Shown here one piece after another: positions 59,519 through 59,945 of a stretch of DNA of 64,000 nucleotides. A model generated the notes under the pieces. It saw only the letters and a program-made list of their open reading frames with translations, had not been told where the DNA came from and did not search any database. Source of the DNA: Escherichia coli O157:H7. Its GTDB lineage: Bacteria > Pseudomonadota > Gammaproteobacteria > Enterobacterales > Enterobacteriaceae. The first letter of the stretch is position 1, and the number at the start of each line of letters is the position of its first letter. The position numbers and the translations under genes are program-made. The stretch lies in assembly GCF_013167455.1 (NCBI RefSeq), contig NZ_CP038328.1; one strand, given 5' to 3'.

Positions 59519-59945
59519 TTTAATCTTTGCAGAATATATTCACTATCAAATTTAGCTCATTTTATTACGAAGACCTTTACGCATGTTAGAAAGTATCATT
59601 ATTGTTAATAAATACGGTAATAAGTAACAAACAGATATTGATAACTTCCCTGACAAGTTATTAGGTATCCCACTTGAAGATTGAGAATGGCTCCAGAGTA
59701 AACTGTGTACTGTTCGCCGGAGTGTCATTACTCTCAACAATCGGTTTTGACAGTGAGTCGGGCGCTTCATACCGGTTTCTACCTGGAGTCATTGTCACTT
59801 CTCCCAACTGGATAAATATATCGCCAATTCACAAAGTGGGCCAAAATCAGGTGAAAACGAATTATTACGCCTGGTAAAGGCTATAGTACAACTAAGTGTG
59901 GCGAATCAGGCAGTCTTGCATTTGTCATCAATCTCATGTCTTACA

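Follow-up and report, generated by a model that had tools for sequence, protein, structure and literature searches.

The systems closest to the locus described here are the O-islands of Escherichia coli O157:H7, the REP/BIME elements of the E. coli chromosome, bacterial leader peptides and upstream ORFs, and the intergenic small genes deduced from Ribo-seq of EHEC. One of the O-islands, OI-97, is the direct neighbor of the locus; its genes for a LysR-type regulator and an MFS transporter are z3495 and z3494, which have been stated to be laterally acquired, and Z3495 has been reported as an activator of LEE genes via rcsF (PMC10819331). With the O-islands, the islet analyzed in the present study shares the presence/absence relative to K-12, a low GC content, the ORFan content and a junction at convergent core genes. 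However, it is very small (1.7 kb), does not possess an integrase, IS, tRNA, terminal inverted repeat or target-site duplication, and ends in a REP fragment that was copied from elsewhere in the chromosome. The likeness to Z2-type REP/BIME elements of E. coli comprises the right REP half plus the BIME flank downstream of cysM, whereas the insert end holds one degenerate copy, situated at an insertion junction, which neither forms a palindrome nor represents a functional REP. As in leader-peptide and upstream-ORF systems, a larger gene is preceded, at a distance of 178 nt and on the same strand, by a short ORF with a Shine-Dalgarno (SD) sequence, which is located within a conserved leader, but terminator/antiterminator structures, a regulatory codon run and an overlap with the downstream RBS are missing. 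This small ORF (smORF) also belongs to the same organism and the same candidate class (fewer than 50 codons, SD sequence) as the intergenic small genes from EHEC Ribo-seq (PMC5597208, PMC4765031), but is absent from the accessible portions of the supplementary lists of these two studies.

The window, i.e., the whole stretch of 64,000 nucleotides from E. coli O157:H7 (contig NZ_CP038328.1 of assembly GCF_013167455.1) that was analyzed, bears in the RefSeq annotation the local gene series glpT, glpQ, an orphan hypothetical gene, z3495, z3494 and inaA (Table 1). Between the orphan gene and the 3′ end of the LysR gene, RefSeq does not list any feature, in line with the non-coding spacer noticed in the preliminary description. 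Its length of about 430 bp (59519–59945) given there has to be corrected, since the orphan gene starts in RefSeq at ATG 59482 and not at TTG 59518, resulting in a gap of 463 bp (59483–59945) the sequence of which is 100% identical to that of many E. coli O157:H7 and O55:H7 chromosomes. Likewise, the gap is AT-rich as described (37.1% GC versus 51.2% for the whole window), but unevenly so, as only the orphan-proximal 178 bp are strongly AT-rich (27% GC), while values of 47% and 40.5% are found for the middle (59661–59792) and the distal segment (59793–59945), respectively. Internal repeats are limited to short chance inverted repeats. From the comparisons outlined below, the gap probably forms the upstream and mostly non-coding end of an AT-rich islet of 1713 bp as well as the control region of the orphan gene.

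Table 1. Features of the glpQ–inaA locus in the window, with the share of variable sites in an alignment of ten alleles.
Feature	Position	Strand	Variable sites	Remarks
glpT, glpQ		plus		RefSeq order, start of the local series
glpQ hairpin	58201–58223			GGATGGCG-TTCA-TGCGCCATCC; next hairpin in direction of orphan transcription after 58251–58276
AT-rich insertion (islet)	58224–59936			1713 bp, 33.6% GC; includes 454 bp of the 463-bp gap besides the orphan gene
Islet 3′ UTR			13.9%	
Orphan hypothetical gene	58412–59482	minus	11.3% (CDS)	RefSeq, WP_001358666.1, 356 aa
Gap	59483–59945			no RefSeq annotation in O157:H7
Leader	59483–59660	minus	6.2%	178 bp, 27% GC; ends in the orphan RBS (SD sequence) AAGGAA (59494–59489)
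Weak promoter-like site	59560–59533	minus		ATGAGC-16-TATATT, one example of the weak consensus matches inside the leader
Palindrome	59641–59661			ATAACTT-N7-AAGTTAT, abuts the smORF stop codon; read from sequence
smORF	59661–59792	minus	4.7% (6/129)	43 codons plus stop; ATG 59792, TAA 59663–59661; peptide MTPGRNRYEAPDSLSKPIVESNDTPANSTQFTLEPFSIFKWDT
smORF SD sequence	59801–59805	minus		GGGAG, 8 nt before ATG; read from sequence
Distal part of gap	59793–59933		12.1%	
Sigma-70-like candidate	59815–59844	minus		TTGGCC-18-TATATT, from consensus scans; precedes the smORF start by about 20 nt and falls into the variable gap portion
Decayed Z2-type REP and cysM-flank copy	59893–59936			of the two REP arms, only the right one (GCGAATCAGGC) remains; 28 nt paralogous to the cysM 3′ flank come next
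Ancestral DNA	59937–59945			TGTCTTACA, 9 bp between insert and LysR stop codon; collinear with the K-12, E. whittamii and E1V33 empty sites
LysR-type regulator Z3495	59946–60824	minus		Pfam HTH_1 and LysR_substrate; upstream same-strand neighbor of the gap
MFS transporter (z3494)	60976–62166	plus		RefSeq; followed by inaA

The borders of the islet can be read from empty sites, as K-12, E. whittamii and Escherichia sp. E1V33 agree in the sequence ...GCCATCC/TGTCTTAC... at this position. K-12 possesses neither the orphan gene nor the gap. The E. whittamii and E1V33 loci, obtained by a LysR-protein scan of one genome per species, align continuously from inaA via the MFS gene to the LysR gene and again across glpQ, and both are devoid of the orphan islet. 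On the LysR side, the insertion junction is located at 59936/59937, with an ambiguity of 1 nt. The islet starts with TCTGCTAAAG... and terminates with ...CATCAATCTCA, and no terminal inverted repeat, direct repeat or target-site duplication was found at these ends. Integrase, transposase/IS and tRNA sequences as hallmarks of mobility were not found in the islet either, the orphan gene being its only large ORF, and a DNA search with the whole islet in plasmid and phage collections did not give any relative. The sole match labeled as plasmid, PLSDB record NZ_CP141089.1, refers to a 4.94-Mb E. coli sequence and is evidently a chromosome. Among 5426 complete E. coli genomes, about 1050 carry the islet, i.e., about 80% do not, and the gap is present in roughly 1040 complete genomes. 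This presence/absence with a conserved empty site and the atypical base composition (33.6% GC versus 51.2% for the window) mark the 1713 bp as an inserted islet, which appears to have been placed into the short spacer separating the Z3495 stop codon from the glpQ terminator hairpin. The insertion scar that had been considered for the spacer is thus supported insofar as nearly the complete gap belongs to the insertion and its distal approximately 44 bp consist of a decayed REP and duplicated cysM flank. As a side observation, a 3.5-kb contig labeled "MAG: Collinsella sp." (L018, JAIJJM010000334.1), spanning part of the MFS gene, the LysR gene, the gap, the orphan gene and the glpQ end, shares 97.6% identity with the E. 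coli locus and is almost certainly an Escherichia sequence that was misbinned into an actinobacterial MAG.

The origin of the LysR-proximal insert end was traced through a weak second BLAST match of the gap, which is located in the intergenic BIME between yfeS and cysM. In strain LSC52, this region is 89% identical to 59893–59939 over 47 nt, and the corresponding K-12 sequence deviates from the window at a few more positions than that of LSC52. The similarity comprises the right half of a Z2-type REP, aligning with 59893–59911, and the next 28 nt toward the cysM stop codon, and stops at 59936, which is the insert end set independently from the empty sites. At the position of the left arm, the window shows GTACAACTAAG where the REP reads GGCCTGATAAG, so that no palindrome is left. 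Accordingly, the imperfect palindrome of about 35 nt matching the Y/Z consensus is absent, with only the right arm being present, and 59893–59911 is best addressed as a REP remnant, not a REP. The copy could stem from illegitimate recombination at a REP or from a former residence of the islet beside cysM.

The same comparisons bear on the neighboring OI-97 genes. In a Pseudocitrobacter MAG, the locus aligns from inaA through the LysR gene. Besides, the yfaH pseudogene of K-12 is the remainder after a 1879-bp deletion between copies of the 8-bp microhomology TTTATCTG at 60181–60188 and 62060–62067. Because the LysR and MFS pair is intact in E. whittamii and Escherichia sp. E1V33, the inaA–LysR alignment extends to Pseudocitrobacter and K-12 has kept a deletion remnant, the pair looks ancestral and lost in K-12, in contrast to the lateral acquisition stated in PMC10819331. 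At this locus, the real insertion is apparently the orphan islet, rather than the OI-97 genes.

The orphan protein was found only in Escherichia, with identities of at least 79%, and no Pfam, PADLOC, PHROG or NCBIfam family could be assigned. An AlphaFold2 model calculated from a shallow alignment reached a mean pLDDT of 41 and is unusable. Values for pN/pS range from 0.3 to 1.2, and the variable sites are distributed over the three codon positions without third-position excess (46/33/42). Variability culminates in a hypervariable center at 58851–59000 (codons 161 to 215, approximately) showing 70–87% nucleotide identity versus 92–100% elsewhere. In addition, the O157 allele encodes RNIQTCYYILR where most alleles have K(E/K)Y(T/A/I)DLLLHSE, which looks like the result of a pair of compensating frameshifts. 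This compensated patch probably explains why PGAP flags non-O157 alleles as frameshifted. A pseudogene in most strains, as these flags might imply, was ruled out by the 356-codon frame being open in six of the eight full-length non-O157 alleles.

Within the gap, the preliminary description had seen only short overlapping frames without RBS, and this has to be revised in view of the 43-codon ORF, which starts with ATG and is preceded by GGGAG. The minus-strand sequence at its start reads ttGGGAGaagtgacaATG. The deduced peptide is acidic (pI 4.6), hydrophilic and proline-rich, and the latter two properties suggest disorder. An ORF of at least 43 codons with SD sequence and ATG occurs in 2.7% of dinucleotide-preserving shuffles when regarding the same strand and in 6.7% when regarding either strand, a chance level which is suggestive, not decisive. 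In the RefSeq genome L006, the ORF appears as hypothetical protein WP_001301743.1, but a PGAP annotation is present in only about one of 60 sampled records. A public protein collection holds gene-finder calls of the smORF on more than 1000 contigs, named, for example, "hypothetical protein." Among the nine other sampled alleles, the smORF can be extracted from eight, and the frame is open in all of them. Allele L011 encodes one additional codon due to replacement of TAA by CAG, the next triplet being TAA. The SD sequence is not an invariant motif, with TAGGG seen directly and GAGGG deduced from the variant columns of L013, although a run of G persists. Variable sites among the ten alleles are equally split into three synonymous and three non-synonymous ones, with pairwise pN/pS values of 0 to 0.9 calculated from only 0 to 4 differences and, hence, having no power.

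Homologues of the smORF outside Escherichia were not found among 5.8 billion and 1.84 billion proteins, as only sequences of the same locus were retrieved, and the ORF is absent from the corresponding loci of Kluyvera, Pseudocitrobacter, E. whittamii and E1V33. Searches against PADLOC, PHROGs and NCBIfam also gave nothing. Seemingly related proteins of 61 to 62 residues (P0018–P0020) were rejected, as they represent frameshifted versions of this locus; the underlying assemblies are error-rich and have split neighboring genes as well. A further protein of 81 aa (P0046) stems from a natural deletion variant fusing the LysR C-terminus in frame to residues 14 to 43 of the smORF. In E. coli 042, 481 bp are absent (corresponding to 59609–60089 of the window), so that the smORF, the distal part of the gap and 48 codons at the LysR 3′ end are lost; in this strain, the orphan and MFS genes are also disrupted. 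In addition to the two Ribo-seq studies mentioned above, the smORF is not listed in the accessible portions of the supplements of PMC5331693 and PMC11188072, the four papers representing EHEC Ribo-seq and Enterobacteriaceae smORF surveys. Regarding a possible transcription attenuation, no terminator was found and the only hairpin after the smORF stop codon is the ATAACTT palindrome, which forms a weak A+T-rich stem of 7 bp, has no T-tract, is not scored as a terminator and varies among alleles at three positions.

In the alignment of the ten alleles, which fall into about four haplogroups, variability is unevenly distributed over the islet. The 310-bp core adjacent to the orphan gene (59483–59792), composed of leader and smORF, shows 17 variable sites out of 307, compared to 164 out of 1399 for all other parts of the islet (Fisher p = 0.001), which corresponds to an about two-fold lower variability; this contrast rests on about four independent haplogroups, and a recombination patch could give the same pattern. 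Between haplogroups, core divergence (0.7–2.6%) is below the synonymous divergence of the orphan gene (0.03–0.12), and the leader shows only one to five differences per 178 nt. The controls gave the expected picture, as pN/pS values close to 0 were obtained for glpQ and of 0 to 0.12 for the LysR 3′ part in intact alleles, while the latter reached 0.76 to 1.05 in comparisons including alleles with the K-12-type deletion. In nearly all comparisons between haplogroups, DNA of higher variability adjoins the core on either side, the exception being L007 versus L013. At the population level (about 1050 genomes), the gap is mostly 95–100% identical to O157, while the islet 3′ UTR mostly shows 90–95%. 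Regulatory intergenic DNA is commonly constrained. In the alignments, the core beside the orphan gene looks constrained as well, the alternative being a recombination patch.

As had been proposed in the preliminary description, it is plausible that the gap holds the orphan-gene promoter. A control region at this position is supported by the orphan RBS, the conserved AT-rich leader and the location of the least variable 310-bp core directly beside the gene. Promoter candidates, on the other hand, are no more numerous in the gap than in shuffled sequences. Moreover, the window sequence is devoid of an AT dinucleotide at 59815 which all nine other compared alleles carry; the deletion is found in O157/O55:H7 alleles. 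This 2-bp deletion converts GATATATATTT to GATATATTT and creates the best −10-like hexamer, TATATT, at a spacing of 18 nt, besides shifting the frame upstream of the smORF. TTGGCC-18-TATATT is a candidate at the consensus level depending on an O157-specific deletion, and not evidence of function. DNA of 27% GC such as the leader is of the kind silenced by H-NS, and local AT-rich promoters would likely be H-NS targets. As a lead only, GCGATATATT at 59825–59816 resembles the high-affinity motif of H-NS, TCGATATATT.

Concerning transcription termination, a terminator-like site was not found on either strand between 59300 and 60100 and, consequently, not in the stretch from the Z3495 stop codon to the smORF. 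The distance from the LysR stop codon to the glpQ terminator hairpin amounts to 8 bp at the empty site, and this hairpin may end transcription from both sides. The insertion moved this hairpin 1.7 kb away from the Z3495 stop codon, with the gap offering no replacement. Because of the displaced hairpin and the terminator-free gap, z3495 transcription should run into the smORF and the orphan gene. Downstream of the latter, the glpQ hairpin may also end the orphan transcript. Another hairpin located between the orphan stop codon and the glpQ hairpin, ACCGGTTA-N10-TAACCGGT at 58251–58276, does not possess a T-run and was not called a terminator. Following the direction of minus-strand transcription, the gap is organized into 9 bp of ancestral DNA, the junction piece of REP and cysM flank, about 100 bp of variable sequence with the promoter-like site and, finally, the 310-bp core. 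With this arrangement, the orphan gene would probably be transcribed both by z3495 read-through and from one or more local AT-rich promoters, the smORF may serve as a translated upstream ORF, and the gap would act as control region for both transcription and translation of the orphan gene. Neither the accessible portions of EHEC TSS and Ribo-seq supplements nor the accessible Z3495 ChIP-seq peaks include this locus.

Against this background, other readings of the gap can be weighed. A small RNA, either trans- or cis-acting, had been suggested for the spacer, and the conservation of the 310-bp core beyond neutral expectation might be taken as a corresponding sign. In addition, the plus strand of the 463 nt, which is antisense to the leader and the smORF, shows a better folding than 99 out of 100 shuffled sequences (z = −2.5). 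However, no local element, promoter or terminator accounts for this plus-strand folding, the minus strand is inconspicuous (z = −0.34), and none of the sliding 80-nt windows falls below z = −2. Furthermore, Rfam searches at permissive thresholds gave best E-values of only about 1.4 to 9, far below gathering scores and for unrelated families such as snoRNA and miRNA, an intrinsic terminator is present on neither strand, and allele variation is too low for covariation. Consequently, a small RNA encoded in the gap is highly improbable. Hardly better is the case for the gap middle (about 59660–59900) being what is left of a longer, now decayed gene formerly located ahead of the orphan gene, as had also been considered. 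Such an origin could account for the island of 47% GC within an islet of otherwise 27–33% GC and for overlapping stop-free stretches of 70, 55 and 78 codons in three frames. However, a Pfam search of four stop-free frames did not give any match in the gap, and a phmmer search with 12 concatenated stop-free frames against 1.84 billion representative proteins resulted in five hits, all of them ORF calls from this E. coli locus and one being the LysR–smORF deletion fusion. A nucleotide comparison, proposed for finding a longer ancestral gene, did not reveal a second DNA copy of the gap middle in 5426 E. coli genomes, plasmids or phages, and nothing similar is located downstream of LysR orthologues in Kluyvera or Pseudocitrobacter. 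A gene remnant is therefore improbable.

An interpretation of the gap as functionless filler plus insertion scar, in which the low variability of the core would reflect a recent recombination patch instead of constraint, has to be taken somewhat more seriously but is still unlikely. It agrees with the islet being dispensable and missing in most E. coli, with the deletion of gap parts in strain 042 and in the LysR–smORF fusion variant and with the small number of haplogroups sampled. It is at odds with the more variable DNA on both sides of the core in nearly all between-haplogroup comparisons, with the same conservation contrast showing up across about 1050 genomes, and with the gap containing the orphan RBS and, unless all transcription is due to read-through, necessarily also its promoter. 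The best of the alternatives, albeit a doubtful one, is a smORF representing a genuine Escherichia-restricted small-protein gene, organized as a two-gene unit with the orphan gene or functioning as a regulatory upstream ORF, which would divide the gap into a gene and two short intergenic regions. The SD-preceded ATG, the orientation shared with both neighboring genes, the chance level of 2.7%, the numerous gene-finder calls together with the WP_001301743.1 entry and the frame being open wherever it could be extracted are all compatible with such a gene. Moreover, the smORF is the least variable segment of the islet, and its 47% GC stands out against the 27–32% to either side within the islet. 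On the other hand, the missing homologues outside Escherichia, with longer relatives turning out to be frameshift artefacts or a deletion fusion, the balanced and powerless substitution pattern, the varying SD sequence, the rare PGAP annotation, the probably disordered peptide, the deletion in strain 042 and the absence from the accessible portions of the EHEC Ribo-seq supplements do not favor a coding function. Going even further, a translated, Escherichia-restricted microprotein of de novo or captured origin, forming with the fast-evolving orphan protein a two-gene module that is transcriptionally coupled to the virulence regulator Z3495 owing to the loss of the z3495 terminator, is a speculative scenario to which we assign little probability. 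Hence, the gap is preferably viewed as the ordinary regulatory leader of a strain-variable ORFan islet, bearing one putative small ORF.

Overall, the importance of the gap is little. For the annotation, its extent is now corrected to 463 bp, a 43-codon ORF that is listed in databases but rarely annotated is assigned to it, and the borders of a 1.7-kb insertion are defined. If translated, the smORF would be one more lineage-restricted microprotein, adding no new principle. Of some relevance might be the consequence for the neighboring regulator, as Z3495 would have lost its natural terminator through the insertion, which could couple expression of the orphan gene to z3495. According to the primers used, the published z3495 and OI-97 deletions end at 59945/59946 and, thus, left the whole gap and the orphan gene in place. 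A coupling of this kind would therefore be relevant to the reading of z3495 or OI-97 deletion phenotypes in E. coli O157:H7.
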